A stretch of 64,000 bases of DNA, taken from NCBI GenBank assembly GCA_049513715.1, contig JBEKVV010000001.1, positions 256,001-320,000 on the forward strand, in the 5' to 3' direction. Below are positions 32 to 52,876 of this stretch, piece by piece. The stretch comes from Candidatus Bathyarchaeia archaeon. Lineage in GTDB: Archaea > Thermoproteota > Bathyarchaeia > 40CM-2-53-6. Position 1 is the first letter of the stretch, and each line of letters starts with the position of its first letter. A program made the translations under genes and the position numbers. A model generated the notes under the pieces. The model saw nothing but the letters and a program-made list of their open reading frames with translations, was not told the origin of the DNA and made no database searches.

Positions 32-3000
32 ATGTTCCCGAGTTTGAAGCAGAGAAAACGAAAGGCCGCTAAAGTGAATGTAAAGGCGACCAAGATCAGC
101 GTCAAACCGCACAGAATCAAATTACATGAAAAGCTGATGGCGCTACATCAGCACGCGGCCAAACTCAGCTCAGCCACGCAGATTGAAAAGGTAGCCAAAT
201 ACACGCTAGACGCGATGGAGTACGCACTTGGATTCGACTACGGTGACTTCACAACCGTTGAGAATGGATGGCTAAGAAAAAAGGGCTCCCGAGGAATGAA
301 AATCGTCTACTCAGATCTACCTCTTAATGGGCCTGGAATAATTGTGAAGGCCGCAAGAATGAGGGACACGGTTTCAGTGTCCGACACTAGGAAGGAACCA
401 GCGTATGTCGATCGCATGGGCATCAATTGGAAAGGACCACGAACAATGCTTTCGGAACTGGCAGTGCCCGTGGTCGTAGACGAAGAGAGTGCTGCTGTGC
501 TAAACGTGGAAAACGCGCGGCCGAATACCTTCACTGACGAAGACCGCAACCTCCTCGAAATACTCGCGTCCCATGTTGGCTCAGCGTACAAGCGTCTAAA
601 CTACGAGGGGAAGTTGATTGCACTCCACAAGCATGCACAGCAACTCGCCTCCGCCACATCCTTGGAGGAGATCATCAAGTGCACCTTGGACGCAATCGAG
701 TCTCCGCTGGGAGTCGAGCTGGCGGATTTCTATGTGATTGACACCGAGAAGGAATGCCTTCGTCTTGTTGGGTTGCGCGGATGGAGTCCTTCCTTCTCAG
801 AATTGAGTCTGCGAGGCCCCGGTTTCACAGTGATGGCTGCAAACTCACAACAGACGGTTAGGATACCCAACATTAGCAAAGAAGAAGGTTATGTTGATTC
901 TGCAGGCCGTTCAGGAAAGGCGGTATCGACGACGCGGCTTTCGGAACTCGCAGTACCCGTGATCGTTGAAGGCAAGACCGTCGCAGTCTTGAACGTCGAG
1001 AGCAGTCAACTCAATGCCTTCAACGATGAAGATCAAAGGTTACTCGAAACACTTGCGGTTCACGTGGGCTCGGCGCTTGGACGCTTGAGACATGAAGAGG
1101 AGCTAGAGACTTTAGCGAGGTTCCCCTCCGAGAACCCGGATCCCATCTTAAGGTTGGACAGGCATGGCACCGTTCTCTTTGCAAATGAGGCGAGTAAGGC
1201 ACTATTGCAGGACTGGAACTCGGGAATTGGTCAAGCTGCTCCCAAGCCTTGGCGCGACCTTGTTACTGATGTTCTTTCCTTTGGAGAAGGCAGGAATATC
1301 GACATCGAGCTTGGCGGCAAATCATACACGTTTCTTGTTAAGCCGATCGTGGAAGGGGATTACGTCAACCTCTACGGAGCGGACATCACTGAACGCAAGC
1401 GGATGGAGAAGGAGCTTAGGCAGAGCGAGGAACGGTTTCGTCTCATCACCGAGAATATGCCTGGAAGCGTATATCTCATGGACATGAATCTGAAGCCGAC
1501 CTACATCAGCCCAAACAACACACGTGTTCGAGGTTACACACTAGAGGAACTTTACGCTCTACCGCTCGATAGACAATTGACCCCTGACTCACTCAAACTT
1601 GCTTTGGAAAATTTCAAAAAGGCTTTGTCCGAAGAGAACCTGAAGTCAAAGGACGCACGGACAAGTCTCACAGAGGAACTGGAGTTCTATCGGAAAGACG
1701 GATCTACTTTCTGGAGTGAGAACACATTCTCATTCGTCAGGAACTCAAAAGGCGAACCTGTCGGAATCCTGGGAGTTGGACGAGACATCACCGCACGCAA
1801 GTGGGCGGAAGAGAAACTTCGTCAATCGGTAGAACGCTACCAGTCTCTCTTCGATCGGATGCTGGATGGAACATACCGCAGCACGCACGAGGGCCGATTT
1901 GTCGACATCAATCCTGCTTTTGTAAAGATGTTCGGGTATTCGAGCAAGCAGGAAATGCTGGACATTACGGACATCAAGAAGCAACTGTATTTCTCACCCG
2001 AAGAACGCGGAAGCCACATTCTGGACACAGGCCAGGAAGAAGTGGAAGCATACCGGATGCGTCGAAAGGATGGATCCGAGATCTGGGTAGAAGATCATGG
2101 TGGTTACGTTCACGACGAACGGGGGAAAATCATCTTCCATGAGGGGCTACTGCGTAATGTTACAGAACGCGTGCGCGCCGAGGAGGCGCTACGCCAGCAT
2201 GCTAGGGAACTGGAAGCGCTCCAAGCGATAGTTCTGGATATTACCCGAAGACAAGACTTGCCGACGATGCTCCGCGCCATCGTTGAACAAGCGGCGACTT
2301 TGCTGAGAACTCCAAGCGGAGGATTGTATACGTGTAATCCTGAAAGGCAGATGGTGCGATGCGTCGTGAGTTACAACACCCTTAAGGATTATACCGGAAC
2401 GTCACTCATGTTTGGAGAGGGCGCTGCCGGCACAGTGGCCAGCACAGGACAGCCATTGATAATAGACGATTATCACAGCTGGTCAGCTCGGGCTGGAGTG
2501 TTTGAGGAGGACCAGCCTTTCGGCGCCTTGCTCAGCGTGCCCATGATCTGGGAAGGCCAAGTTACCGGCGTAATTCACGTCTTGGACAAAGAGTCAAGAC
2601 ACTTCACCAAAGCCGATCTTGCGTTGCTGAAACTCTTCGCAAACCACGCAGCGATCGCCCTCGAGAACGCACGTCATTCAGAGAACTTGGAGCGGATGGT
2701 TGGAGAAAGAACCGCTAAGTTGGCCGAGAGCCAACATCAGCTTCAACTCATGGCAGACTCCTTGCCAGCAGCGATAAGCTACGTGGATTCGCAACAGAGG
2801 TATAGTTTCAACAACAAAACCTACAAAGAATGGTTTGGTAAGTCGCCCAACGAGATTGTGGGACGACATGTTAGAGAGATATTGGGTGAGCAGACCTATC
2901 AGAGAATTCATGGGCGCATGGAAGCCGCACTCTCAGGAGAGGGACAGTTCTTCGAATATGAGTTAACGCTTAGATCGGGCACACGGTATCTCAGCGCCAC

Positions 3001-3781
3001 CTACGTTCCAAACTTCGGAGAGGACGGACAAGTCAAAGGAGTGTTTGTTTTAGGCATTGACATTACAGAACGCAAAAGGATGGAGGAGCGTCTTCTCAAG
3101 GCTCAGCGTTTTGCTGCTATCGGGGAGACAGCGGCAATGGTGGGCCATGATCTTCGCAACCCATTACAAGCAATTTCTGCGGCGGCATACGTCTTGGAGA
3201 AGAAGCTTAGCTCAGAAGCAGATTTGCAGACCAGGGAGATGCTTGAAGCGGTCAAGAACAGTGTCGCATACTCAGATAAGATCGTAGAGGACCTCTTAGA
3301 GTACTCTGAAGAGATACGATTGGAACGCTCAGAAACAACACTCAAATCGCTCGCAGGAGACGCATTACTTAACGTGAGAATTCCAAGGAACATATCCGTT
3401 TCAAACTTGACATCAGACGAGCCGAAGATACGAGTCGACGCAGCAAAGATCCGGCGTGTGTTCTCTAACCTGATCGAGAATGCTGTCGACTCCATGCCCA
3501 ACGGCGGCAAACTTACAATAATCAGCAACAAGTCAAATAGCCAAGTCGAACTCAAGTTTATGGATACGGGAGTAGGTATCCCTGAGCATGTCTTGCGTGA
3601 ACTCTGGACGCCTCTCATCACCACGAAGCCCAAGGGGATCGGGTTAGGTTTGGCTATCTGCAAACGCATCGCGGAAGCACATGGTGGTTCCATATCTGTG
3701 ACCACCAAGAAGGATGAAGGCACAACCTTAATCCTGAAACTTCCTCTCACAGCAAACCAAGAAGAAGGTAGGAGCGCATGA
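32..3781 (+). CDS. Multi-sensor histidine kinase (2xGAF, several PAS, GAF, PAS, HisKA, HATPase)
   Basis: Two tandem GAF repeats (SELAVPV..VLNVE..AF), PAS/PAC motifs (DITERKRME, RKDGS), H-box GHDLRNPL, N-box NLIENA, G-boxes DTGVGI and GIGLGL; exact start uncertain. Confidence 0.93.
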   Translation: MFPSLKQRKRKAAKVNVKATKISVKPHRIKLHEKLMALHQHAAKLSSATQIEKVAKYTLDAMEYALGFDYGDFTTVENGWLRKKGSRGMKIVYSDLPLNGPGIIVKAARMRDTVSVSDTRKEPAYVDRMGINWKGPRTMLSELAVPVVVDEESAAVLNVENARPNTFTDEDRNLLEILASHVGSAYKRLNYEGKLIALHKHAQQLASATSLEEIIKCTLDAIESPLGVELADFYVIDTEKECLRLVGLRGWSPSFSELSLRGPGFTVMAANSQQTVRIPNISKEEGYVDSAGRSGKAVSTTRLSELAVPVIVEGKTVAVLNVESSQLNAFNDEDQRLLETLAVHVGSALGRLRHEEELETLARFPSENPDPILRLDRHGTVLFANEASKALLQDWNSGIGQAAPKPWRDLVTDVLSFGEGRNIDIELGGKSYTFLVKPIVEGDYVNLYGADITERKRMEKELRQSEERFRLITENMPGSVYLMDMNLKPTYISPNNTRVRGYTLEELYALPLDRQLTPDSLKLALENFKKALSEENLKSKDARTSLTEELEFYRKDGSTFWSENTFSFVRNSKGEPVGILGVGRDITARKWAEEKLRQSVERYQSLFDRMLDGTYRSTHEGRFVDINPAFVKMFGYSSKQEMLDITDIKKQLYFSPEERGSHILDTGQEEVEAYRMRRKDGSEIWVEDHGGYVHDERGKIIFHEGLLRNVTERVRAEEALRQHARELEALQAIVLDITRRQDLPTMLRAIVEQAATLLRTPSGGLYTCNPERQMVRCVVSYNTLKDYTGTSLMFGEGAAGTVASTGQPLIIDDYHSWSARAGVFEEDQPFGALLSVPMIWEGQVTGVIHVLDKESRHFTKADLALLKLFANHAAIALENARHSENLERMVGERTAKLAESQHQLQLMADSLPAAISYVDSQQRYSFNNKTYKEWFGKSPNEIVGRHVREILGEQTYQRIHGRMEAALSGEGQFFEYELTLRSGTRYLSATYVPNFGEDGQVKGVFVLGIDITERKRMEERLLKAQRFAAIGETAAMVGHDLRNPLQAISAAAYVLEKKLSSEADLQTREMLEAVKNSVAYSDKIVEDLLEYSEEIRLERSETTLKSLAGDALLNVRIPRNISVSNLTSDEPKIRVDAAKIRRVFSNLIENAVDSMPNGGKLTIISNKSNSQVELKFMDTGVGIPEHVLRELWTPLITTKPKGIGLGLAICKRIAEAHGGSISVTTKKDEGTTLILKLPLTANQEEGRSA

Positions 3782-19549: not shown

Positions 19550-21241
19550 GTGGGACGACCCGCTTTGCGCTCTTCAACCCGCCTGCTAGTTTTGTCAGCG
19601 CTATTTGTGGGCTTGTTTGCTCTTCTGAATCCAGCTGTTCGCGCCCAACCCATTTACACCGTCACAGTCACGGTTCAAGGGTTGCCAGATACTGCGAGTA
19701 CAGTGGTCTACGTTGACGGTGGCGCAAACGGAACTCTCTCTGGCGGCCAATCGCGCACATTCACTTTCATGTTCGCGAGCTCACCTCACATAATCACAGT
19801 GGACTATTACGTTCCTAATGTCGGAGCCAACGGCACGAGGTATTATGATAAGGATACTTCTTGGACGTTCAACGGCACGGCCAACCATGTCTTCACTTAC
19901 GTGACCCAATACTACCTTGAAGTGAAATCCTCATACAGCACATCGGGAGGGCAGGGATGGTATGACGCGGGGACGTCGGTTCAAGCCACCATTCAGGACG
20001 CTCAAGTAGGCGAGGGCGCGGGTACTCGGAACGTCTTCGCTGGTTGGTCTGGAGATGCGACCGGCAAGGATCTGAGTTCCGTAACTATATCCATGAATGG
20101 GCCGAAGACAGCAGTTGCTACTTGGAAAACGCAGTTCTACCTGAATGTAGAATCCGACCCGCCTAGCGTCAGCAACCTGAATGGGTCAGGTTGGTACGAC
20201 GCAAATAGCGTTGCGAATTTCTCCGCGCCCACAGTCATATCAGCGAATGACAATTCTCGGTTGAGGCTGAGTCATTGGACGGGTGCCTACAGTGGTAGCG
20301 ACCCTACGGGCAGCACTGTGATGGATCAACCCAAGTCGGTTAAGGCGAATTACATCGCACAATACCTGCTAACCGTAGAGTACAATCCACACAGCATCAC
20401 AACTTCCTACAATGAAACCCACACCGGCTGGTTCGACGCGAACACGAACGTGCAACTCGGTCCCGCACCGGCCACAATCACGCTCAGCACTGTGGAGAGG
20501 ATTCGATTCCTACAATGGGATGTGGACGGCAACACAAGCACCAATCTTTCGATGACGGTCCTTATGGACAAGCCGCACAAGGTTGCGTTGGCGTACAAGA
20601 CACAGTACTTCGTTGAAGTTCGCTCGTCCTATGGTTCAGCGACTGGGACCGGGTGGTATGACCAAGGGTCAACCGCAACGATAGCAGTCGCTGCGACGCA
20701 GGGAACATGGCCGATTTCATACGCGCTCACAGACTGGCGCGTAGATCCACCTACTGGAACGCTGACAAAAACGGGCGATTCATGGTCGTTGACTGTTGAC
20801 CGGCCATATGTCGTTGAAGCGGATTGGAACCTAGATTACGTGCCACTAATACTTGTCTTCGGTGGTGGTAGTGTCGCCATCGCCGCGGTTGCAGTTGGTA
20901 TTTTCTTCGCCAACCGGCGGGGGCTCTTCAATTTTGGTGGTCCAGTCCTCGGCTCTTTAGGACCAAAATCGAGGTTGCCGCGCATTCCTAGAGGGAGGGG
21001 AAGGGTCTGTAGCAGTTGTGGCAATCGCATCCCAGAGGGTGCGACCTTCTGTCAGAGATGCGGAGCGCCTGTTAGAGCGCCTGCTGTGCCGCCTTCTACT
21101 CTAGATGATAAGGTGTACGATTACATTGTCAAGCATGAAGGCGTGATTTCTACGAGCAAAGCATCGAGTGACCTGGGGCTGTCGGTTAATGAACTGAAGG
21201 AAATTACGGAGAGGTTGAAAAAGAAGGGGCTACTGACCTAG
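19550..21241 (+). CDS. Type I membrane protein: signal peptide, repeated extracellular beta domains, TM helix, zinc ribbon, C-terminal winged helix
   Basis: Hydrophobic N-terminus ending VRA-Q; about 4 repeats Q[YF][YL][LV].V....G.GW[YF]D; TM near IAAVAVGIFFA; CSSCG..IPEGATFCQRCG; LDDKVYDYI..HEG.I....S.DLG.....L.....RLKKKG. Confidence 0.8.
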   Translation: MGRPALRSSTRLLVLSALFVGLFALLNPAVRAQPIYTVTVTVQGLPDTASTVVYVDGGANGTLSGGQSRTFTFMFASSPHIITVDYYVPNVGANGTRYYDKDTSWTFNGTANHVFTYVTQYYLEVKSSYSTSGGQGWYDAGTSVQATIQDAQVGEGAGTRNVFAGWSGDATGKDLSSVTISMNGPKTAVATWKTQFYLNVESDPPSVSNLNGSGWYDANSVANFSAPTVISANDNSRLRLSHWTGAYSGSDPTGSTVMDQPKSVKANYIAQYLLTVEYNPHSITTSYNETHTGWFDANTNVQLGPAPATITLSTVERIRFLQWDVDGNTSTNLSMTVLMDKPHKVALAYKTQYFVEVRSSYGSATGTGWYDQGSTATIAVAATQGTWPISYALTDWRVDPPTGTLTKTGDSWSLTVDRPYVVEADWNLDYVPLILVFGGGSVAIAAVAVGIFFANRRGLFNFGGPVLGSLGPKSRLPRIPRGRGRVCSSCGNRIPEGATFCQRCGAPVRAPAVPPSTLDDKVYDYIVKHEGVISTSKASSDLGLSVNELKEITERLKKKGLLT

Positions 21242-21243
21242 GG

Positions 21244-21666
21244 TTAGAATGGCCAAGACCGGTTCTGTTCTTGCGGCTGGTAAACTATCTGAGGTTGTTG
21301 TTCGTACGCGTTGGGTGGGTGGCCAATTTTCGGAGCCAAGCCCCAGTAGCATTCAGGGCAGAAGTTCAGCATACCGTACTGTTTGTTGCACCCGGCGCAA
21401 ATGGATCTGCCACACCGAGAGCATACATATGACGACGGCAACTCGTTATGGTAGTAGCATGTTCCCGGCCGCGATACGTTCCTAGGGGTGTAGATTGGTG
21501 GAGCCATCGGGCTCGGGCCCGGAGTGGGCAAGCCAGTCAGCGGGGACTTCACCTCAACTTTGACGGGTGGTGTAAGTGAAGGCGCTTGCGATACTGCCGC
21601 TCCACAACTGTAGCAGAACTTAGCATTGTCTGCGTTGCCCCTGCCACAAACTCGGCATATTGCCAT
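21244..21666 (-). CDS. Zinc-ribbon + B-box-like zinc finger protein
   Basis: CRVCG..NADNAKFCYSCG, Pro-rich linker, C-x2-H-x8-C-x2-C-x4-C-x2-C-x9-C-x2-C; ATG at 21666 within ORF 21244..21696. Confidence 0.8.
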   Translation of the reverse strand: MAICRVCGRGNADNAKFCYSCGAAVSQAPSLTPPVKVEVKSPLTGLPTPGPSPMAPPIYTPRNVSRPGTCYYHNELPSSYVCSRCGRSICAGCNKQYGMLNFCPECYWGLAPKIGHPPNAYEQQPQIVYQPQEQNRSWPF

Positions 21667-21823
21667 GTCGTGTACCTTACAAAGAACTGCTCTCATGCAT
21701 TTCTTAACAGTTACTTACCCTGAAATGCTTCTCTCCATTCCCTTTCGCCACAAAACAAGGCTATTTCAGCGAGTGACGCTGCATTGGCTTATGAAATATG
21801 ACACGGTTGATGCAAAATCATTC

Positions 21824-23074
21824 CTAAATCAGCCTGAGGATTGATTCGCGCAGTTCTCCGTTTTTGCTTTCTGAAATGACTTTCAGGTAATCCCCATGTG
21901 CAAGCTTCTTAACCGCTCTAGGGAGAGGCTCTAGGCTTTCCTCTCCTTTGATGGTTTCAGTGAAAATTCTGACTTGTGCTTCTGTTCTGAGAGCTTCTCG
22001 AATCGCGCCTTGCGGAGTCTGGCTTGAGGCGTGGATTTTCGCGAGCACAAAGTCGAGTCGCGGCACAACTTCCTTTGCAGTTCCATCTTTTCCGCATACG
22101 AAGCATTTCTCGCCTCGCTTCAAATCCATTTGTGTAAATCGGTTGTTTTTCATGTCAATGAACAGTACTGATCGCAAGGGTGGCCCGCTTGTCTCTGGCC
22201 ATTTGTGTTTCTCTTGGAACGTTGCGAGTCCCAGGATCAGTTTGGTGGTTTCTTGGGCGACGATTGAGGAGACGAGTGAGATTGAGGTCGCGAAAGATGG
22301 AACGGCTTCCTGTTCTAATGGTGCATCGCATGGGTTTCGTAGACCCACGATGTGTGAGTATTGGTTTGGCGGGAACATGCAGATTGGGCAAGGGTCTTCG
22401 GGCGGGATGTAAACGTGGACTCTGGCATTCAGGCCAGTGATACCGCCGTCGACCAGGGGCGTCGAGTATTTTCTGCTTACTTGTGTTAGGAAAATCCTTG
22501 AGACAACATTGTCGAGTCCGCAAACAATCACGTCGGAATCCAGGTAGAGCTTCAAGGGCAGCGATTCCAAATCGCCCCTAAAGGCTGCGGTTTCCACGAA
22601 TGGATACTTTTTGTGTACGTTTTTTGCGAGAACCTCGGCCTTGTTCTTTCCCAAATTGGTGGGTTCGAAGAATATCATGCGGCTGACGTTTGACATTTCT
22701 ACTTTATCGCGGTCCACAATGAGAAGTTTGCCGATTCCAAGCATCGCCAGATTCTTGGCGACTTCGTTTCCTATGGCGCCTGCGCCAGCGATAAGGACGG
22801 TTGAGTTTCTAATCTTATTCTGCCCGTCTGAGCCCCAGGCAATTAGGTGCCTTGCCCAAAGGTAGTCTACGACCACTGGCTCGCCAGACACTTTGAGTTT
22901 CGACACTCGGGTTGCGTCAGGGAGATTTTTCCCTGCCAGAAGTAGTCTTGTGAGTTCCGGCTCGATGCCGAACTTTGCACAAACAAGTTTCTTGAGATCT
23001 CTGACAGTCTGGTTGGGGCTCAGCTCCATCTCGATTTGTTTGTATGAGGGAATGGAGGCTTTCAGGCGCATCAA
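21824..23074 (-). CDS. E1-like (ThiF/MoeB family) activating enzyme with N-terminal ubiquitin-like domain
   Basis: GAGAIG, DRDKVEMSNVSR, LDN..SR, CPIC and CFVC Zn pairs, candidate catalytic Cys in RNPCD; residues 1-70 ubiquitin-like (TVRDLK...RLLLAGKNL). Confidence 0.9.
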   Translation of the reverse strand: MMRLKASIPSYKQIEMELSPNQTVRDLKKLVCAKFGIEPELTRLLLAGKNLPDATRVSKLKVSGEPVVVDYLWARHLIAWGSDGQNKIRNSTVLIAGAGAIGNEVAKNLAMLGIGKLLIVDRDKVEMSNVSRMIFFEPTNLGKNKAEVLAKNVHKKYPFVETAAFRGDLESLPLKLYLDSDVIVCGLDNVVSRIFLTQVSRKYSTPLVDGGITGLNARVHVYIPPEDPCPICMFPPNQYSHIVGLRNPCDAPLEQEAVPSFATSISLVSSIVAQETTKLILGLATFQEKHKWPETSGPPLRSVLFIDMKNNRFTQMDLKRGEKCFVCGKDGTAKEVVPRLDFVLAKIHASSQTPQGAIREALRTEAQVRIFTETIKGEESLEPLPRAVKKLAHGDYLKVISESKNGELRESILRLI

Positions 23075-23670
23075 GTGGACGCCCTATGCTCTTTCCCCGG
23101 AATACTGAACCTGACAATGTCCCTGGGTCCTGAGGGTGTGACAGGTACTCGTGGGACGGGAACGACGTTGAAGCGGAGAGTGTCGTCAGCTTCTTTCTTG
23201 GGTTGTTGTTTGACCTTGGTCATCTTCGGGAAGCCGTAGGAACGGCACACGTTTGCCGCCTTCAGTGACCGGGGATGGTCGAAGACGTTCGAAGGGTTCG
23301 GGTCGGTTAGGAGGTAGTGTAAGGCGTTAACAACTGAAATGAGCCTGAGGCGCGGGTCCCACTTATCCCCGAGGATCGAAACGCAGACAGCGTTCGGTAT
23401 GTTCGGCACAATGTTGGGGTGTGAGATGTCGGAAAGCCACATTGCTACCGGCGGCTTCAGGGGGTACTCTGGCGTTAGGTCTAGCCGAAACCGGTTCCAG
23501 TCAGTGTACTCAGTGAAAGGCCAGACGCCCTTCTCGGAGAGCTTCTTTACCTCACCCTTCTCGCAGCGAATCAGGCCCTCGAATTGGGTGGGGGGGTCGT
23601 TGAGGGCCGTGATCGTGGGGAACTGGTGGTTCAGCAGGGTCTTCTCTTTGTAAAGTACAGTGGTGTCCAT
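23071..23670 (-). CDS. Ubiquitin-conjugating enzyme E2 (UBC fold)
   Basis: FRLDLTPEYPLKPP...ISHPNI...VCVSIL..KWDP...LLTDPN matches the UBC signature with HPN and catalytic Cys; stop overlaps the E1 start. Confidence 0.92.
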   Translation of the reverse strand: MDTTVLYKEKTLLNHQFPTITALNDPPTQFEGLIRCEKGEVKKLSEKGVWPFTEYTDWNRFRLDLTPEYPLKPPVAMWLSDISHPNIVPNIPNAVCVSILGDKWDPRLRLISVVNALHYLLTDPNPSNVFDHPRSLKAANVCRSYGFPKMTKVKQQPKKEADDTLRFNVVPVPRVPVTPSGPRDIVRFSIPGKEHRAST

Positions 23671-23681
23671 TTGGGTTGGCC

Positions 23682-23924
23682 TTACCCACCTATGATGTTG
23701 TACGGCATGAGGGCAAGTTGAGCGTTCTCGGGAATACCCAACCGCGCTACGGTTGTACTCTCGTCAAGTATGGCTCCACCATACATGAGAGCGACGGTGG
23801 TGGGATCGACGTTGAAGGACTGGCAGACCTGCTGCTTGATTTCGCCAACTGTGTGGTCTGGAATTACGTCAATCTCCGCCAAGCCTGTCTGCGGCCCGAT
23901 TGGAGCTTGGACGAACAGTTTCAT
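23682..23924 (-). CDS. Ubiquitin-like modifier with C-terminal diglycine
   Basis: MKLFV...TVGEIKQQV...LMYGGAIL...IIGG-stop; GGAGGTGA Shine-Dalgarno 10 nt before ATG 23924 (alternative start 23948). Confidence 0.92.
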   Translation of the reverse strand: MKLFVQAPIGPQTGLAEIDVIPDHTVGEIKQQVCQSFNVDPTTVALMYGGAILDESTTVARLGIPENAQLALMPYNIIGG

Positions 23925-23974
23925 CTGCGATGATTCACCTCCGCTCATGCTGGTCTGGCAATTCTATAGAGGAG

Positions 23975-23980
23975 CTTAAA
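23975..23980 (-). promoter_or_regulatory. Candidate TATA box (TTTAAG) for the Ubl-E2-E1 transcript
   Basis: TTTAAG directly after the JAB stop, about 27 nt upstream of ATG 23948. Confidence 0.4.
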
Positions 23981-25534
23981 CTATCTTACTATGAATTGAA
24001 TTGCCTGGGAATGGGTGACTCCGCCACCCGACGCGTTGATGGTTAGGGTGTATGATCCCCGTTTTACTGCCGTGGTTGTCGTGATTTGGAGTGTGATGGT
24101 GATGGTTCCGGTGCCACCGACCGTGTTTCCGCTTGTGGTCAGTTTGTACGTTGCCCCTTGAGGAAGGCCGTTGACAGTTACCGCCACAGGGTCTACGAAT
24201 CCGTGTTGCAAAGTTATCAGCAGTGTATAGGCGGTTGACGTCCCCGCAGACACCTGCGCAAGACTCGGCGAGACTTGCAGGTCAAAGTCAGCGACGGTGA
24301 CCGGTATCGTAACCTGGCGCGTAACTGGTTGGGCTCCGGAGGGGGAATAGGTGCTTTTCACCACAATTTGATACGTGCCGTTGGGAGTCGTTTGGGATGC
24401 TGCGAGTTTCATTGTTACTTTGGTCAAACCAATCGGAACGGGGTTGGGGTTGAAGCTTATCGCCAACCCGGATGGGGCGCCATCCGCAGAAAACGACACT
24501 TGTTGGCTGAAATCATTGATCATGAATAGATCCACTTCCTCAGATGCCGTTTGTGTTCGGTAAACGGTAAGCGTCGGAGTTCCTGGGGAGAGCGCAAAGT
24601 CTGAGATCAGGATTCGATATTGGCTTGTCTGTTTCTGGTTGCCTGCCTGATCAGCTGCCGCAATGTAGTACGCCAAGTTTCCAGTAACCTGCTGGCCTGG
24701 AATCGTGTACCCGTAGAAGCTTCCTTGCACCAGCGTCATTTTGACCGGGGCCAAGTTTGCGCCGGGTGCTGCGTAGTATAGTGTTACGTCTCGAACTGGG
24801 CCGGTAACGTTAGCTGTGATCTCAACGGGTGTTCCAACAGTGCCGGTTAGAACTGGGTTGTGAACAATCGCCAAGCCTGATGTCGACGGGGTGCCCCTGT
24901 ATAATATTGCGCCGATTAAGCCCGCGGATGCCACGAGCGTTATGAAAACCACGACCATGAGAGTGGTGCTTATTCGCTGCTTTGGCATGGGTCGGGGTTG
25001 GGGCGGGAGCAACTGTTGCTGCCGCACCTCGATCGTTGGCGTGGGTCGAGTAAGGGCTCTGGTTGGCTCCCGCGGGGTTGCCTCAAAGGCTTCTTCGGTT
25101 CGAACGCTCACCATTTCTTCAGGTATCCGAAAGGGTTTCTTGGTTTGTGGGTCGATTCTGAAGTATCCCACTTCTCCCGTGGTAGCGTCTATAACGACAC
25201 CTGTGACGAGGGAAGAGAACTGCTGAAGGGTCCTCTGTGTCTCAATGTCGGTTTCAGAAAAGAACACTCCACCCTCGGTGTGTGAGTGGTACCATCCTAC
25301 AATGTTGCCTTTCACCCGCCCACTAACCAAGTCATCGGCAATTTGGGCGAGCGTTGAGGGAGGTAGCGTTACTCGGTGCGGTTCTGATGAGAATTCGCCG
25401 GTAATTGAATCGTCAATAACGATGGAGTCACTTTCGCGCCGGCCAAGTAGAAGGCCGATTATTTCGTTTCTTGTCTCATGTGAAGCCTGGACGATTCGGT
25501 CGTAGACAGGCTTCCATATGCTCACATAAGACAA
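23981..25534 (-). CDS. JAB/MPN+ metallo-isopeptidase fused to a TM helix and extracellular Ig-like domains
   Basis: EIIGLLLG...VGWYHSHTEGGVFFSETD (E..HxH-x7-S-x2-D); TM TLMVVVFITLVASAGLIGAILY; Thr/Val-rich beta domains with two DF.L...G.P.G repeats. Confidence 0.9.
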   Translation of the reverse strand: MSYVSIWKPVYDRIVQASHETRNEIIGLLLGRRESDSIVIDDSITGEFSSEPHRVTLPPSTLAQIADDLVSGRVKGNIVGWYHSHTEGGVFFSETDIETQRTLQQFSSLVTGVVIDATTGEVGYFRIDPQTKKPFRIPEEMVSVRTEEAFEATPREPTRALTRPTPTIEVRQQQLLPPQPRPMPKQRISTTLMVVVFITLVASAGLIGAILYRGTPSTSGLAIVHNPVLTGTVGTPVEITANVTGPVRDVTLYYAAPGANLAPVKMTLVQGSFYGYTIPGQQVTGNLAYYIAAADQAGNQKQTSQYRILISDFALSPGTPTLTVYRTQTASEEVDLFMINDFSQQVSFSADGAPSGLAISFNPNPVPIGLTKVTMKLAASQTTPNGTYQIVVKSTYSPSGAQPVTRQVTIPVTVADFDLQVSPSLAQVSAGTSTAYTLLITLQHGFVDPVAVTVNGLPQGATYKLTTSGNTVGGTGTITITLQITTTTAVKRGSYTLTINASGGGVTHSQAIQFIVR

Positions 25535-25549
25535 TCGTTACACCGAAAG

Positions 25550-25586
25550 TAAAAAGGGAACAAAAAATTGGGGACCCTTGCGGGGT
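25550..25586 (-). terminator. Possible hairpin + T-tract after the membrane zinc-finger gene
   Basis: Minus strand reads ACCCC-GCAA-GGGT then AATTTTTTGTTCCCTTTT directly after the stop at 25589. Confidence 0.35.
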
Positions 25587-25588
25587 TG

Positions 25589-26422
25589 CTAACGTCCCAG
25601 CATGCCGAGTATTCCGCCCAGCACGCCAAGGACGAAGCCGGCCACAAAACCTCCGCCAATTATCAGACTCATTACAGCCAGCGGGAAGACAACGATGCTT
25701 CCGATGGTTCCGTACCCTAGTAGCATCAAAATCGAACCGATCACTAGGATGAGTCCGATGATAGCGCCGAGAGCGAAGGCAAGGCTTTGTGGAATCGATG
25801 TCGGTGGAGCCAACCAGAAGAAGATGCTCGACCACATTGTGTAGAACGAACTGGAGAGCAATGCTGCTGCGTTGAGTATGACCAGGATTCCTGCAATCAT
25901 GGAGAGTATGAATCCCCACAGAGCTCTTGGCGCACTCGGGGCCATGAACGGTCCCGGATAGGGTGCTGGCATGAAGGACGCTGGCGGGCCTGACATCGGT
26001 GGGGCCATCATTGGTCCCATTGGTGGGGCCATCGCTGGACCCATTTGAGGTGCGTAAGCCGGACTGTATTGGGGTGCCGGTTGCTGCGGATTTGCCATAG
26101 GTTGTTGGGCTGTCATAGGCACTATTCCTGCGTAACACTGAGGACAGAGAACAAGGTCCATATATGCTTTAGAGTCGTCTCTGCAGATTGCTCGTCCACA
26201 GCGGTTGCAAACGTAGATTGCTGGAAGGTTCGGGTGATAGAAGCATTGGCCAGGTGCTGGAACCCTAATTGGGCCGCCGGGGCTGACTGGGGTTACTACG
26301 CGGACTGATGGGACTGGTTTGAGTGCTGGGGCCATTGCGCCTGCAAGTGACGCGCCACAACTGGAACAGAATGCTGCATCGTCGCGGTTGTTGTAGCCAC
26401 ATGATGGGCATTTCTTGACCAT
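25589..26422 (-). CDS. Zinc-ribbon + B-box-like finger + Pro/Met-rich linker + multi-pass membrane domain
   Basis: CPSCG..NRDDAAFCSSCG; CFYH-x8-CNRC-x4-CRDD-x9-CPQC; about 4 C-terminal hydrophobic helices; AAAGGAGG SD at 26435-26442. Confidence 0.82.
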   Translation of the reverse strand: MVKKCPSCGYNNRDDAAFCSSCGASLAGAMAPALKPVPSVRVVTPVSPGGPIRVPAPGQCFYHPNLPAIYVCNRCGRAICRDDSKAYMDLVLCPQCYAGIVPMTAQQPMANPQQPAPQYSPAYAPQMGPAMAPPMGPMMAPPMSGPPASFMPAPYPGPFMAPSAPRALWGFILSMIAGILVILNAAALLSSSFYTMWSSIFFWLAPPTSIPQSLAFALGAIIGLILVIGSILMLLGYGTIGSIVVFPLAVMSLIIGGGFVAGFVLGVLGGILGMLGR

Positions 26423-27286
26423 TTTTCTAAATATCCTCCTTTAGCTAATTTAACACGGATTGACCGTGCTATGGTGAGCGCACTTAAGCATTTGCTCCAG
26501 CGTTGTCAAATTAGTGAATGGTAAAAGCCCAGTTATACCATTTTTTAGCGCAAACATAGGGGAGTCCCCAAAAATGGCTGCCACGAGCAGTTTTCGCGCA
26601 TCCGTTTGACAAAGAGAAAGCAATGAAACCCTTCGGAAATCTACTACGCGTTTCTGAACAGAACAATTTCATGATCAACCAGGCGCCCAACGTGACCAGT
26701 AATGCCGAGATTTCACCAAACGCGATTTTTCGTGGCCGCGATCTCGAAACATGGCCAAGGAAATTGCTCGATCACTGTTTCTCCGATCCCCTGCGTTGTA
26801 GCATAAGAAAATTCAGATCTCACGGCCTTCTGTAGGGCTAGGTACTGTGATGCCGAGAGGAGGAGTTGCATTCGGAATCTGCGGGGGTGTCCTGTGATTC
26901 GTTTGCGATGCGCCCGCCCCCTGTGGGTTGAGATGTAGCCTATTGGCGGGCGGGATGATGTCGTTTCGGTTTGCATAATGGCTCCCTTCCAGTCCTGGCT
27001 GGGTCAATTGGGTGCTCGCCTGCCTGCTGTTTGGAAATGTAAATAGTGGATGAACGCTTCTACGTGAGTTCGCTTCGTTCTTTGTACCTAGTGTCGCGAC
27101 GTGGGTTTTTTCGTTACTTAGTTATCTTCGCGCATGGCAAATGATTCATCTCTATCGGTGCAACGTGCTGAAGACACGTGTTTGTGGCTGTGAGTATCAT
27201 TCATGTCTGGCTACGAGTTTGCGTGAAATGCCTGTTGGATTCAGCAGATATTTAGCGAAGTTGTGCATAGGTGCGGTTTCGCGGAA

Positions 27287-33575: not shown

Positions 33576-33685
33576 TGGTGCCGGGAGCGGGGTTCGAACC
33601 CGCGGCTTCTGGGCCCACGGCTCTCCAGATTATGAGTTTCGTCCCTTAAGCCTGGCTGGCGCTCTACCAGCTGAGCCACCCCGGC
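33576..33685 (-). tRNA. tRNA-Met(CAT), probably elongator, with two non-canonical introns (33638-33655 at 30/31; 33607-33622 at 45/46)
   Basis: GCCGGGG/TCCCGGC-A-CCA; CCAG^A-CTCATAA-TCTGG; second intron has a clean BHB (CTGG-AGA...CCAG-AAG). Ile2 identity not excluded. Confidence 0.88.
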
Positions 33686-52774: not shown

Positions 52775-52876
52775 TGGTGGGGTCGCTGGGATTTGAACCC
52801 AGGACTTCGCGGTTGCGGTTTAGGCAACTCACGCGGGCCCAAGCCGCGTATCATAACCATGCTAGACTACGACCCC
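52775..52876 (-). tRNA. tRNA-Pro(TGG) with one non-canonical intron at 45/46 (52806-52829)
   Basis: GGGGTCG/CGACCCC-A-CCA; CGCGG-CTTGGGC-CCGCG; BHB CGCG-TGA-GTTGC..GCAAC-CGCG-AAG. Confidence 0.92.

Follow-up and report, generated by a model that had tools for sequence, protein, structure and literature searches.

A probable membrane-tethered Rpn11-like deubiquitinase with exchangeable outside modules in a ubiquitin gene cluster of Bathyarchaeia

Introduction

What is the role of a protein that joins an Rpn11-like JAB domain to a transmembrane (TM) helix and a row of Ig-like domains, and that is encoded within a ubiquitin (Ub) gene cluster? Archaeal E1/E2/Ub/Rpn11 operons serve to reconstruct the origin of eukaryotic ubiquitin signalling, and the studied example, that of Caldiarchaeum, is entirely soluble according to the available text of two reports (PMC6043591, PMC5654768). 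The gene considered here lies in a window of 64,000 nucleotides, the whole stretch of DNA that was analysed (contig JBEKVV010000001.1, assembly GCA_049513715.1), from a soil Bathyarchaeia archaeon that carries a eukaryote-like ubiquitin gene cluster. A sequence-only reading of the gene had described a receptor-like deubiquitinase with the enzyme inside and a sensor or adhesion region outside.

Integrity of the JAB-TM gene

The JAB-linker-TM-3xIg gene (JAB-TM; 23981..25534, minus strand) encodes 517 aa from a TTG start codon, which agrees with the homologues in their shared N-terminus, MSYVSI... Homologues of the protein form 171 clusters at E <= 1e-3. These clusters share the JAB+TM+Ig architecture; 116 of the 120 listed keep the fusion at full length, with at least 98% of the query covered, and full-length matches are found in 15 species-representative genomes. 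In the ESM Atlas, the protein matches just a cluster of its own kind, labelled "hypothetical protein" (Archaea 94%). Moreover, the gene is crossed with 0 differences by two independently assembled contigs, 24.8 and 24.1 kb long; the runs behind them are possibly the source samples of the genome. These homologues and contigs argue against a chimeric assembly or frameshift that fused a JAB gene with a surface-protein gene. No support for such an artefact was found for the window gene itself; among the relatives, one gene has an internal frameshift (L021) and two are split or masked (L102 and L103). Conservation of the fusion thus excludes a misassembly as well as a frameshift peculiar to this genome, and we give such an origin a negligible probability.

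The catalytic domain

Residues 1-147 (25094..25534, minus strand) make up an MPN+/JAMM domain of the Rpn11 type, which is predicted to be cytoplasmic. Pfam JAB (PF01398) matches residues 13-106 with 43.8 bits against a cut-off of 22.5 (E 2.5e-11), Prok-JAB matches with E 2e-09, and AF2 gives residues 1-147 an alpha/beta fold with a low-confidence loop at residues 49-56. The best PDB sequence match of the domain is the C. subterraneum Rpn11-like protein 6fjv (E 1.2e-15, residues 16-137), followed by CSN5 (6e-11) and Rpn11 (3.5e-07). The motif H83-S-H85-x7-S93-x2-D96 (25247..25288, minus strand) occurs once in the protein, and its partner Glu24 stands within "NEIIG" (25463-25465, minus strand). 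Among 30 aligned homologues, H83, S84, H85, S93 and D96 are invariant and E24 is present in at least 90%; the identity of the whole domain among homologues is 70%. The intact N-terminal MPN+ motif that had been noticed in the sequence is thus borne out by a Pfam score above the cut-off and by the conservation of the catalytic residues, and the domain has the full set of Zn-binding and catalytic residues.

Linker, membrane helix and topology

The JAB domain is followed by a linker (residues 148-189; 24968..25093, minus strand) that is rich in Pro (21%) and Arg (14%) and disordered in AF2, and then by a single transmembrane helix (residues 190-212; 24899..24967, minus strand). The linker bears a juxtamembrane motif, PTPTxEVR, in which P164, T165, P166, E169 and R171 are nearly invariant; over the whole linker (~40 aa) the identity among homologues is 30%, and over the helix 33%. 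The Kyte-Doolittle profile exceeds 1.6 in the sole segment 187-214, AF2 places a helix at 190-212, and an N-terminal hydrophobic stretch is absent. Hydropathy, composition and AF2 therefore agree with the earlier description of a protein with no signal peptide, a Pro-rich basic linker and one hydrophobic helix.

The net charge around the helix is +3.57 before and +0.53 after. N-glycosylation sequons number 8 in 5294 aa on the N-terminal side versus 176 in 9250 aa on the C-terminal side, a 13-fold excess on the latter, and the bias is also present in the variants, e.g. 0 versus 20 in P0196. The type II topology (N-in/C-out) that had been proposed fits both the positive-inside rule and the sequon bias, and as a prediction from hydropathy, charge and sequons it is supported.

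The Ig-like ectodomain

The region of about 300 aa that had been described as Thr/Val-rich and beta-structured (residues 215-517; 15% Thr and 10% Val) resolves into three Ig-like beta-sandwiches by structure prediction and fold search. AF2 predicts three such domains with block pLDDT mostly above 90, and in Foldseek they resemble tandem Ig domains, e.g. titin I67-I69 (E 1.2e-11). All on the minus strand, they span approximately residues 220-317 (domain 1; 24584..24877), 318-415 (domain 2; 24290..24583) and 416-517 (domain 3; 23984..24289). Together, the features of the JAB domain, linker, helix and ectodomain far exceed what chance would give. Three sequon columns are conserved, 242 and 249 in domain 1 and N385 in domain 2; at column 249 the window protein has D. 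The ectodomain retains its ~300 aa and 46-54% identity among homologues over many lineages.

Domains 2 and 3 jointly correspond to a unit that also occurs as a repeat in giant proteins and in surface proteins of this genome. Some 10 further ORFs of the genome contain repeats of the ectodomain, together with signal peptides and TM anchors. The Foldseek search on the ectodomain gave generic tandem-Ig matches alone, with no functional clue, ligand-binding pocket or known binding domain. A predicted complex between residues 215-517 and the ectodomain (residues 33-427) of the 563-aa protein of the same cluster had a score of 0.00, which is uninformative on binding.

The ubiquitin gene cluster

The gene cluster comprises, in order, a Zn-ribbon/B-box-like membrane protein, JAB-TM, Ub, E2, E1, a small Zn-finger protein and a convergent receptor-like Zn-ribbon protein, with gaps of 54, 32 and 11 nt and then a 4-nt overlap counted from the first of these genes. 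The cognate modifier and its enzymes are thus encoded beside JAB-TM, as Pfam and the related loci agree: a ubiquitin homologue of 88 aa ending in ...YNIIGG-stop (23682..23948; Pfam ubiquitin E 7.4e-10), an E2 of the UQ_con family with an HPN...C motif (23071..23670; E 4.9e-14) and an E1 of the ThiF family (21824..23074; E 5.5e-48) with an N-terminal ubiquitin-like domain (residues 11-68; ubiquitin E 5.2e-10), all on the minus strand. The JAB gene precedes Ub, E2 and E1 at 29 of 30 related loci, that is, 19 of 20 loci (the exception being L012), 8 of 8 genomes of other families and 2 loci with split genes. PDB sequence matches of the ubiquitin are to ubiquitin and to "Ubiquitin-like protein" chains (6fj7, 2mqj and 6fnn_C, the last co-deposited with an Rpn11-like protein). 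In the window's genus the ubiquitin ends in GG-stop, and maturation is therefore not required; in other families 1-4 residues follow the GG.

Three Zn-ribbon proteins accompany this core. The upstream gene (25589..26422, minus strand) encodes 277 aa with a Zn ribbon, a B-box-like Cys/His module, a Pro/Met-rich linker and a polytopic membrane domain, and is a candidate membrane E3-like partner. The small soluble protein of 150 aa (21244..21696, minus strand) has a Cys/His module of 8 invariant ligands and is likewise an E3-like candidate. The convergent gene, which co-occurs with the cluster (19550..21241, plus strand), encodes 563 aa with a signal peptide, a repeat ectodomain, a TM helix, a cytoplasmic Zn ribbon and a conserved C-terminal helical tail. 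In Pfam, no RING family scored on the Zn-finger proteins of the cluster, and the matches to zf-B_box (18-19 bits, cut-off 24.1) and Prok-RING_1 (18.1, cut-off 29.1) are sub-threshold. For the 150-aa protein, AF2 gave a poor model (pLDDT 52.7, below 50 across the Cys/His module), and a PDB profile search gave Zn-ribbon matches alone, DZANK1 and ArnA.

The cluster is tightly packed and vertically inherited. Two genera have it, one in 21 of 22 genomes and the other in 10 of 10, and its gene order is fixed. Its ubiquitin is 87-96% identical across the loci of relatives, and its neighbours have housekeeping functions and include neither mobile nor defence genes. All of these argue against an antiviral conjugation system like bacterial Bil or CBASS Cap2/Cap3, in which the cluster would tag viral or host proteins during infection and the surface-exposed ectodomain would meet virions. 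Such a function might be suspected from the set of Ubl, E1, E2 and JAB, which equals that of bacterial defence operons in the available text of PMC10557695, from the modular ectodomain, which evolves faster than the catalytic domain (46-54% versus 70% identity), and from a sister genus in which the cluster was not found (0 of 22 genomes). The PADLOC matches, however, are those of E1-E2 models to the generic E1 adenylation domain only, with none for the JAB, Ub, E2 and Zn-finger proteins, and the JAB domain is nearest to Rpn11/CSN5-type enzymes; an antiviral role is thus very unlikely.

In RNA-labelled runs, where the shares are small, contigs lie over the 5' part of the 277-aa gene and over the Ub/E2 edge and none over the JAB gene, a coverage that bears neither for nor against its transcription. 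These contigs derive from relatives, because their likeness is 90-99%.

Variants and distribution

Long variants of JAB-TM all have one TM helix at about residue 160-220 together with an intact motif (22 of 22), and their outside modules include PKD, Big_7, CarboxypepD_reg-like and Big_3_5. At 5 of 20 loci the ectodomain is replaced by a polytopic DUF998 domain, and there are also tail-anchored forms of 209-212 aa without an outside module. A tree was built from 46 chosen JAB domains, and its root depends on the choice of outgroup. One branch (SH-aLRT 93) separates 43 anchored forms from 3 soluble ones, and the DUF998 forms are nested within the TM+Ig clade (support 99). Among the forms examined, the membrane anchor is constant and the outside module exchangeable. 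A JAB-TM gene in a long open frame is found in 43 of 401 sampled Bathyarchaeia genomes; we counted such frames rather than the 70 of 401 class-level hits, because some of the latter genomes hold just a soluble JAB paralogue of ~145 aa, and at the three loci checked in family f4 no Ub, E2 or E1 lies close by.

These variants bear on the suggestion that an external ligand controls deconjugation. A receptor-deubiquitinase would bind a glycan, protein, virion or neighbouring cell through its Ig domains and thereby switch or relocate the JAB activity, for example by clustering, which would turn events at the surface into changes of ubiquitylation. The single-pass N-in/C-out architecture is compatible with it, as are the ~300-aa ectodomain retained with its conserved residues and sequons, the diversity of outside modules, which is like that of receptor families, and the type I receptor-like protein with a cytoplasmic Zn ribbon in the same cluster. 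Furthermore, the membrane domain of the 277-aa protein has a single paralogue in the genome, which is fused to the best paralogue of the ectodomain. On the other hand, DUF998 takes the place of the ectodomain inside the same genus-level clade and the tail-anchored forms dispense with it, yet in both cases the cluster retains its Ub, E2, E1, Zn-finger and receptor-like genes. The Ig modules, moreover, are generic surface repeats of the genome, for which Foldseek gave no binding pocket or domain. Since the linker and helix are disordered or poorly conserved, allosteric coupling across the membrane is unlikely, and clustering alone stays plausible. The control by an external ligand that the sequence-only reading had proposed is thus possible and unsupported, and as a whole the receptor reading seems to us rather unlikely. 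The ectodomain nevertheless has a selected function beyond that of an anchor alone, because its 46-54% identity is kept and a tail anchor is enough in one lineage; this counts against a reading in which it serves solely as an anchor.

The constant anchor also bears on whether JAB-TM is a general ubiquitin-recycling or maturation peptidase, for which the anchor would merely assemble or stabilise the protein, with no membrane-specific substrates. Such a peptidase might be expected where residues past the GG have to be removed, as for CsRpn11 in the available text of PMC6043591, and the genome has a single other JAB protein, a soluble paralogue of 143 aa with 43% identity. Against it, the ubiquitin of the window's genus needs no such removal, at least two further cluster proteins are in the membrane, and the anchor is kept in all 43 members of the anchored clade examined, with any C-terminal module; we consider this explanation distinctly unlikely.

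Because the anchor is constant while the outside module is exchangeable, a membrane-tethered deubiquitinase is the best reading. JAB-TM is probably an Rpn11-like (JAMM/MPN+) deubiquitinase of this kind, working in a membrane-centred, eukaryote-like ubiquitin system of Bathyarchaeia, and we hold this with reasonable rather than high confidence.

Discussion

As a membrane-tethered deubiquitinase, JAB-TM would hydrolyse ubiquitin isopeptide bonds, an activity that its sequence suggests, in conjugates built by the E1, E2 and candidate E3 of the cluster on the cytoplasmic face of the membrane. Where a lineage has 1-4 residues past the GG, it may also cut the peptide bond that follows the GG. The anchor would restrict deconjugation to the membrane, where the enzyme would probably act on membrane or surface proteins and on those products of the cluster that are themselves in the membrane. 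The ectodomain appears to be the cell's ordinary surface Ig module, which most likely positions or holds the enzyme in the envelope and does not act as an allosteric gate. A bolder extension is a prokaryotic pathway in which a membrane-embedded B-box/RING-like ligase of a TACK archaeon tags surface or membrane proteins with a near-eukaryotic ubiquitin and a transmembrane deubiquitinase edits the tags, the place and time of removal being set by envelope or external ligands that cluster its Ig domains; it is speculative, and we think it rather improbable in this full form. If it were true, archaea outside the Asgard lineage would have a forerunner of ERAD, ESCRT sorting or the turnover of receptors under ubiquitin control; a Snf7-like/Vps4 cluster is also present in the genome.

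In the literature searched, which takes in few subscription journals, neither a membrane-anchored JAMM/Rpn11 nor a ubiquitin operon of Bathyarchaeia is mentioned, and the available text of PMC6043591, PMC5654768, PMC4571572, 10.1101/763623, PMC9534799, PMC1779556 and PMC11188069 contains neither. A conserved membrane-fixed JAB with outside Ig domains thus appears to be undescribed there. The cluster is a second, widespread version from the TACK lineage, in which the deubiquitinase is always membrane-bound and at least two more components are in the membrane. If membrane proteins are what the system targets, the cell surface would have come under ubiquitin control before eukaryotes existed and outside Asgard archaea, and a JAB domain of ~150 aa, an 88-aa Ub, one E1 and one E2 would offer a tractable small set for membrane-confined editing. 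In addition, the exchange of outside modules amounts to a natural experiment on the contribution of an ectodomain to a cytoplasmic enzyme.

Comparison with known systems

The earlier statement that archaeal JAMM relatives are soluble holds for the nearest characterised one, CsRpn11 of Caldiarchaeum subterraneum (PDB 6fjv/6fju), a soluble 202-aa protein with C-terminal helices in the available text of PMC6043591 and PMC5654768. CsRpn11 and JAB-TM share the catalytic motif and are both encoded next to Ub, E2 and E1, and the JAB-TM loop at residues 49-56 may correspond to the flexible Ins-1 described in the former (PMC6043591, available text). JAB-TM differs in having 517 aa, a TM helix and three outside Ig domains instead of a soluble body of ~200 aa. 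According to the same partial source, CsUb requires C-terminal processing (PMC6043591), whereas the window's Ub already ends in GG; likewise, the C. subterraneum operon, as far as the available text describes it, has a RING-H2 protein, whereas the window's Zn-finger proteins are B-box-like at best.

The Bil and CBASS Cap3 operons follow the same logic of Ubl, E1, E2 and JAB (PMC10557695, available text), but the window cluster is core-genome and vertical, and its JAB, Ub and E2 have no PADLOC match. Archaeal desampylases of the HvJAMM1 type are similar in being JAMM proteases on an archaeal Ubl, but JAB-TM scores 25.5 bits against the cut-off of 130 for desampylase NF041370, and the soluble 143-aa JAB is the likelier counterpart in this genome.

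Eukaryotic Rpn11 (PSMD14) and CSN5 share the MPN+ fold and motif with JAB-TM and, to our knowledge, have no membrane anchor. CSN5 works in a soluble multi-subunit complex, where it pairs with an MPN- partner. Rpn11 is also paired with one, Rpn8, in a soluble multi-subunit complex (PMC6043591, available text). For JAB-TM, no MPN- partner is seen in the cluster. USP30 and USP19 are membrane-anchored cysteine proteases of the USP fold without a large ectodomain, and AMSH is a peripheral JAMM enzyme that is brought to the endosome via ESCRT proteins; we know of no combination of a JAMM domain, a TM helix and extracellular Ig domains among the three. What JAB-TM would share with them is the principle of a deubiquitinase that is confined to a membrane surface and edits conjugates there.

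The JAB-TM protein and the ubiquitin cluster

The minus-strand gene at 23981-25534 (TTG start) encodes a 517-aa product, the JAB-TM protein, with a JAB/MPN domain at residues 13-106 (Pfam: 43.8 bits, cut-off 22.5, E = 2.5e-11). The motif H83-S-H85-x7-S93-x2-D96 occurs once in the protein, with Glu24 located upstream, and H83, S84, H85, S93 and D96 are invariant among 30 aligned homologs. Because its only strongly hydrophobic stretch lies at residues 187-214, the protein has no signal peptide. The linker at 148-189 is rich in Pro (21%) and Arg (14%), and residues 215-517 contain 15% Thr and 10% Val. In an AlphaFold2 model using the 30 homologs as input (mean pLDDT 79.3), the JAB domain is alpha/beta, 148-189 is disordered, a helix spans 190-212, and the C-terminal part forms three beta-sandwich domains, most of whose blocks exceed a pLDDT of 90. 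The Foldseek hits of this C-terminal part are generic tandem Ig domains, e.g., titin I67-I69 (E = 1.2e-11). The elements listed in the sequence-only reading, namely an intact N-terminal MPN+ motif without a signal peptide, a Pro-rich basic linker before a hydrophobic helix, and Thr/Val-rich beta domains, are thus all found where that reading placed them.

The JAB-TM gene is the second of six minus-strand genes. It follows the gene for a 277-aa protein with a Zn ribbon, a B-box-like module and a polytopic membrane domain, and precedes those for an 88-aa ubiquitin ending in GG-stop (23682-23948), an E2 (UQ_con, 4.9e-14), an E1 (21824-23074; ThiF, 5.5e-48) with an N-terminal ubiquitin-like domain, and a 150-aa Zn-ribbon/B-box-like protein (21244-21696). 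A convergent plus-strand gene encodes a 563-aa protein with a signal peptide, a repeat ectodomain, a TM helix and a cytoplasmic Zn ribbon. The first five minus-strand genes are separated by 54, 32 and 11 nt and then overlap by 4 nt, and housekeeping genes (DNA polymerase IV family, DHDPS, acyl-CoA dehydrogenase and ribose-5-phosphate isomerase) surround the cluster. The ubiquitin-family domain of the E1 is PF00240 (E = 5.2e-10, residues 11-68), and the E1 gene weakly cross-matches the ubiquitin gene in tblastn. Eight Cys/His ligands are invariant in a Zn-finger protein of the cluster, and the zf-B_box and Prok-RING Pfam matches of the Zn-finger proteins are below threshold; these proteins are no more than candidates for an E3 role.

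Several smaller features concern the same proteins. F150 of the 150-aa protein is invariant, all 15 aligned homologs also ending in Phe after a Gln/Pro-rich tail. Wetland Nanopore metatranscriptome contigs, originating from relatives (90-99% likeness), stack at 26219-26452, where the 277-aa gene has its 5' end, to a summed depth of up to about 630; they may be drawn there by the conserved Zn-ribbon region. Short, conserved, Pro-flanked, beta-strand-like motifs lie on the minus strand within otherwise disordered linkers of three cluster proteins: PTPTxEVR in the JAB linker (approximately 25040-25063), the invariant PPVKVEVKSP in the 150-aa protein (approximately 21541-21570) and PVPSVRVVTP in the 277-aa protein (approximately 26300-26330). 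We take them to be similar to SUMO-interacting motifs, and they could be a shared docking element.

Membrane topology

The mean net charge of the 20 residues flanking the TM helix is +3.57 before and +0.53 after it in the 30 sequences. In the same sequences, 8 N-x-S/T sequons are present in 5294 aa on the N-side of the helix versus 176 in 9250 aa on the C-side (0.15 vs 1.90 per 100 aa), with three conserved sequon columns at residues 242, 249 and 385. More distant variants show the same bias (e.g., 0 vs 20, 0 vs 17 and 1 vs 20). Moreover, as is known from biochemistry, the JAB domain requires cytoplasmic ubiquitin conjugates, which are products of an ATP-dependent E1. Taken together, the two biases and this need support the N-in/C-out (type II) arrangement proposed earlier as the likely topology.

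Conservation of the gene and of the cluster

The fusion is not an assembly artefact. Searching 5.8 billion proteins (8000 candidates scored, E ≤ 1e-3), we found JAB-TM homologs in 171 clusters. All of the best 120 contain PF01398, with lengths of 415-534 aa and identities of 44-99%, and 116 of these best 120 reach a query coverage of at least 98%. All sampled words of 23600-26500 are present in eighteen wetland or peat DNA runs, and in two of these a single contig (24.8 and 24.1 kb) spans the region with zero differences. Because the matching runs may include the source sample, the argument against an artefact rests mainly on conservation of the JAB-TM-Ig fusion. In individual related loci the JAB-TM gene is frameshifted (L021), split (L102, which additionally bears an N-terminal Zn ribbon) or broken by masked bases (L103).

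Ubiquitin, E2 and E1 genes lie downstream of the JAB gene in 19 of 20 related loci; the exception, L012, has a JAB-TM gene with unrelated genes downstream and lacks all three. The cluster also recurs in a further set of genomes (8 of 8), drawn from other families of the order and, in one case, from a different family of the class; in two more it is present with the JAB gene split or masked. Identity to the window across loci is 87-96% for ubiquitin, 72-80% for E2 and 58-68% for E1, and the JAB-TM protein as a whole shows 40-54%. By segment, identity in the JAB-TM protein is 70% in the JAB domain, 30% in the linker, 33% in the helix and 46-54% in the Ig domains. A JAB match within an open frame of 381-625 aa was found in 43 of 401 sampled genomes of the class. 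By genus, hits were obtained in 21/22 genomes of the window's own, 10/10 of a second and 0/22 of a third, which belongs to the same family. A looser count of 70/401 takes in genomes having only a soluble paralog of about 145 aa; at three such loci, no ubiquitin, E2 or E1 gene was found nearby. In one family of the order (G087, G161, G209, G091, G149, G230, G173, G095, G272 and G022), a third type of JAB paralog is encoded in open frames of 299-336 aa.

The 20 closest loci all come from species-representative genomes. The record title is Bathyarchaeia or Bathyarchaeota for 15 of them and "archaeon RBG_16_50_20" for one, and four bear bacterial labels on the same archaeal cluster (L004, L007, L011 and L013; Acidiferrales, Nitrospiraceae, Acidoferrum and Methylomirabilota). 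The RefSeq protein P0149, labeled [Eubacterium] cellulosolvens, also falls within the JAB-TM family. Binning error probably explains the four loci, and binning or contamination is the likely source of these labels together with that of P0149.

The window's genome (G000) comprises 2.79 Mb in 11 contigs, with 99.4% completeness and 8.79% contamination. Two minus-strand tRNA genes of 99 and 107 nt (52778-52876 and 33579-33685) match Rfam and were missed by ARAGORN, which suggests that they bear introns, as would fit an archaeon. A Cdv/ESCRT-III-like cluster lies at G000:C1:731367-734375, where a 382-aa ORF matching Vps4_C is found between two Snf7-like ORFs; the scores of these two, like that of the Sulfolobus control, are below threshold.

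A constant anchor and a variable outside module

An exhaustive HMMER search (1.84 billion representatives, E ≤ 1e-3, 3913 hits) shows the Ig pair (residues about 310-516) to be a repeat unit of giant proteins, with a maximum of 27 stretches (in a protein of 3577 aa). It is also repeated in about 10 other ORFs of G000; of six examined, five possess further TM anchors in addition to a signal peptide or an N-terminal TM segment, and one has none. Because it recurs in giant proteins and in the genome's own surface ORFs, the Ig pair is an ordinary surface module of the cell. In many JAB proteins the JAB-linker-TM plan is in turn combined with other outside modules, including four PKD domains (761 aa), Big_7, CarboxypepD_reg-like and Big_3_5. 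The 22 long variants checked all keep the motif intact, and each has a single hydrophobic segment around residues 160-220. In 5 of 20 loci, from the same genus, a six-helix DUF998 domain replaces the Ig part (PF06197, 6.6e-24 and 8.5e-19 in the two proteins scanned). Another family has a 212-aa form ending in the TM helix as a tail anchor, P0240 being alike, and one lineage adds an N-terminal Zn ribbon. We selected 46 JAB domains (14 of the 30 aligned homologs, 29 other anchored forms of various kinds and three soluble forms as outgroup) for a quick maximum-likelihood tree, in which the 43 anchored forms lie on one side of a branch with SH-aLRT 93. The DUF998 forms are nested within the TM+Ig clade (support 99), and the tail-anchored pair is nested among ectodomain-bearing forms at a weakly supported node. 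The invariant is therefore the membrane anchor; the ectodomain, probably the earlier state, is widespread and can be swapped or dropped while the cluster persists.

Two further loci of G000 combine similar parts. At L084 (G000:C1:835438-839058; ORF 847-3306, minus strand), an 819-aa protein (827-aa stop-to-stop frame) joins a signal peptide, a TM helix and a Zn ribbon to two paralogous regions: the genome's best paralog of the JAB ectodomain and its only one of the 277-aa protein's membrane domain (58% identity over 112 aa). This fusion hints, in the manner of a Rosetta stone, that the JAB-TM and 277-aa proteins may work together. At L088 (G000:C1:125532-129035), a surface protein with the same Ig repeats, a TM helix and a terminal cytoplasmic Zn ribbon resembles the convergent 563-aa protein; G000 thus has more than one type I membrane protein with a Zn-ribbon tail.

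Proposed function

In silico, the JAB-TM protein has a complete catalytic residue set, the architecture and likely topology described above, and a conserved operon with ubiquitin, E2 and E1. The enzyme would strip ubiquitin off conjugates made on the cytoplasmic side of the membrane, and its anchor would restrict ubiquitin removal to the membrane. The cluster's other membrane proteins and the hint from L084 strengthen this membrane-centered reading. The sequence-only reading had gone further, proposing that an external ligand could control deconjugation; a linker that is disordered and little conserved, and an outside module that can be exchanged, speak against tight coupling of this kind. Ligand control through the ectodomain is possible, with clustering as the only plausible route.

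Comparison with known enzymes

Among PDB sequences, the JAB domain best matches a Caldiarchaeum Rpn11-like protein (6fjv, E = 1.2e-15), followed by CSN5 (6e-11), Rpn11 (3.5e-07) and BRCC36 (6.7e-05). According to the published accounts, CsRpn11 is a soluble 202-aa enzyme that matures CsUb and strips it off conjugates (PMC6043591), and its operon includes a RING-H2 protein (PMC5654768). The window's ubiquitin matches both ubiquitin itself and chains named "Ubiquitin-like protein", among them 6fnn_C, co-deposited with the Caldiarchaeum Rpn11-like protein. Because it ends at GG, it needs no maturation. This GG-stop end is found in the window's genus, and 1-4 residues follow GG at six loci of other families (L091, L093, L095-L098); precursor processing is therefore lineage-specific. 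The haloarchaeal desampylase model gives the JAB-TM protein only 25.5 bits (cut-off 130), and only the E1 adenylation domain of the cluster matches PADLOC defense models. G000 encodes a separate soluble 143-aa JAB protein (43% identical), and soluble E1-E2-JAB clusters occur in Thermoplasmata relatives. Long JAB proteins, 460-570 aa in length, also occur in acidobacterial genomes (Bryobacterales/Solibacter records, L023-L065 among others) and share 35-40% identity over the catalytic core; some have one hydrophobic segment near residue 230-300, and no further Pfam domain was found in them.

JAMM deubiquitinases, archaeal eukaryote-like ubiquitin operons and Ig-like surface domains are each of a known kind. 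In the full texts searched, mostly outside subscription journals, we found no account of an Rpn11-like enzyme that is constantly anchored in the membrane and bears extracellular modules such as Ig or PKD, nor of the Bathyarchaeia ubiquitin cluster as a whole. Within that literature, the individual parts are thus already known, and the anchored combination and the Bathyarchaeia cluster are apparently new.
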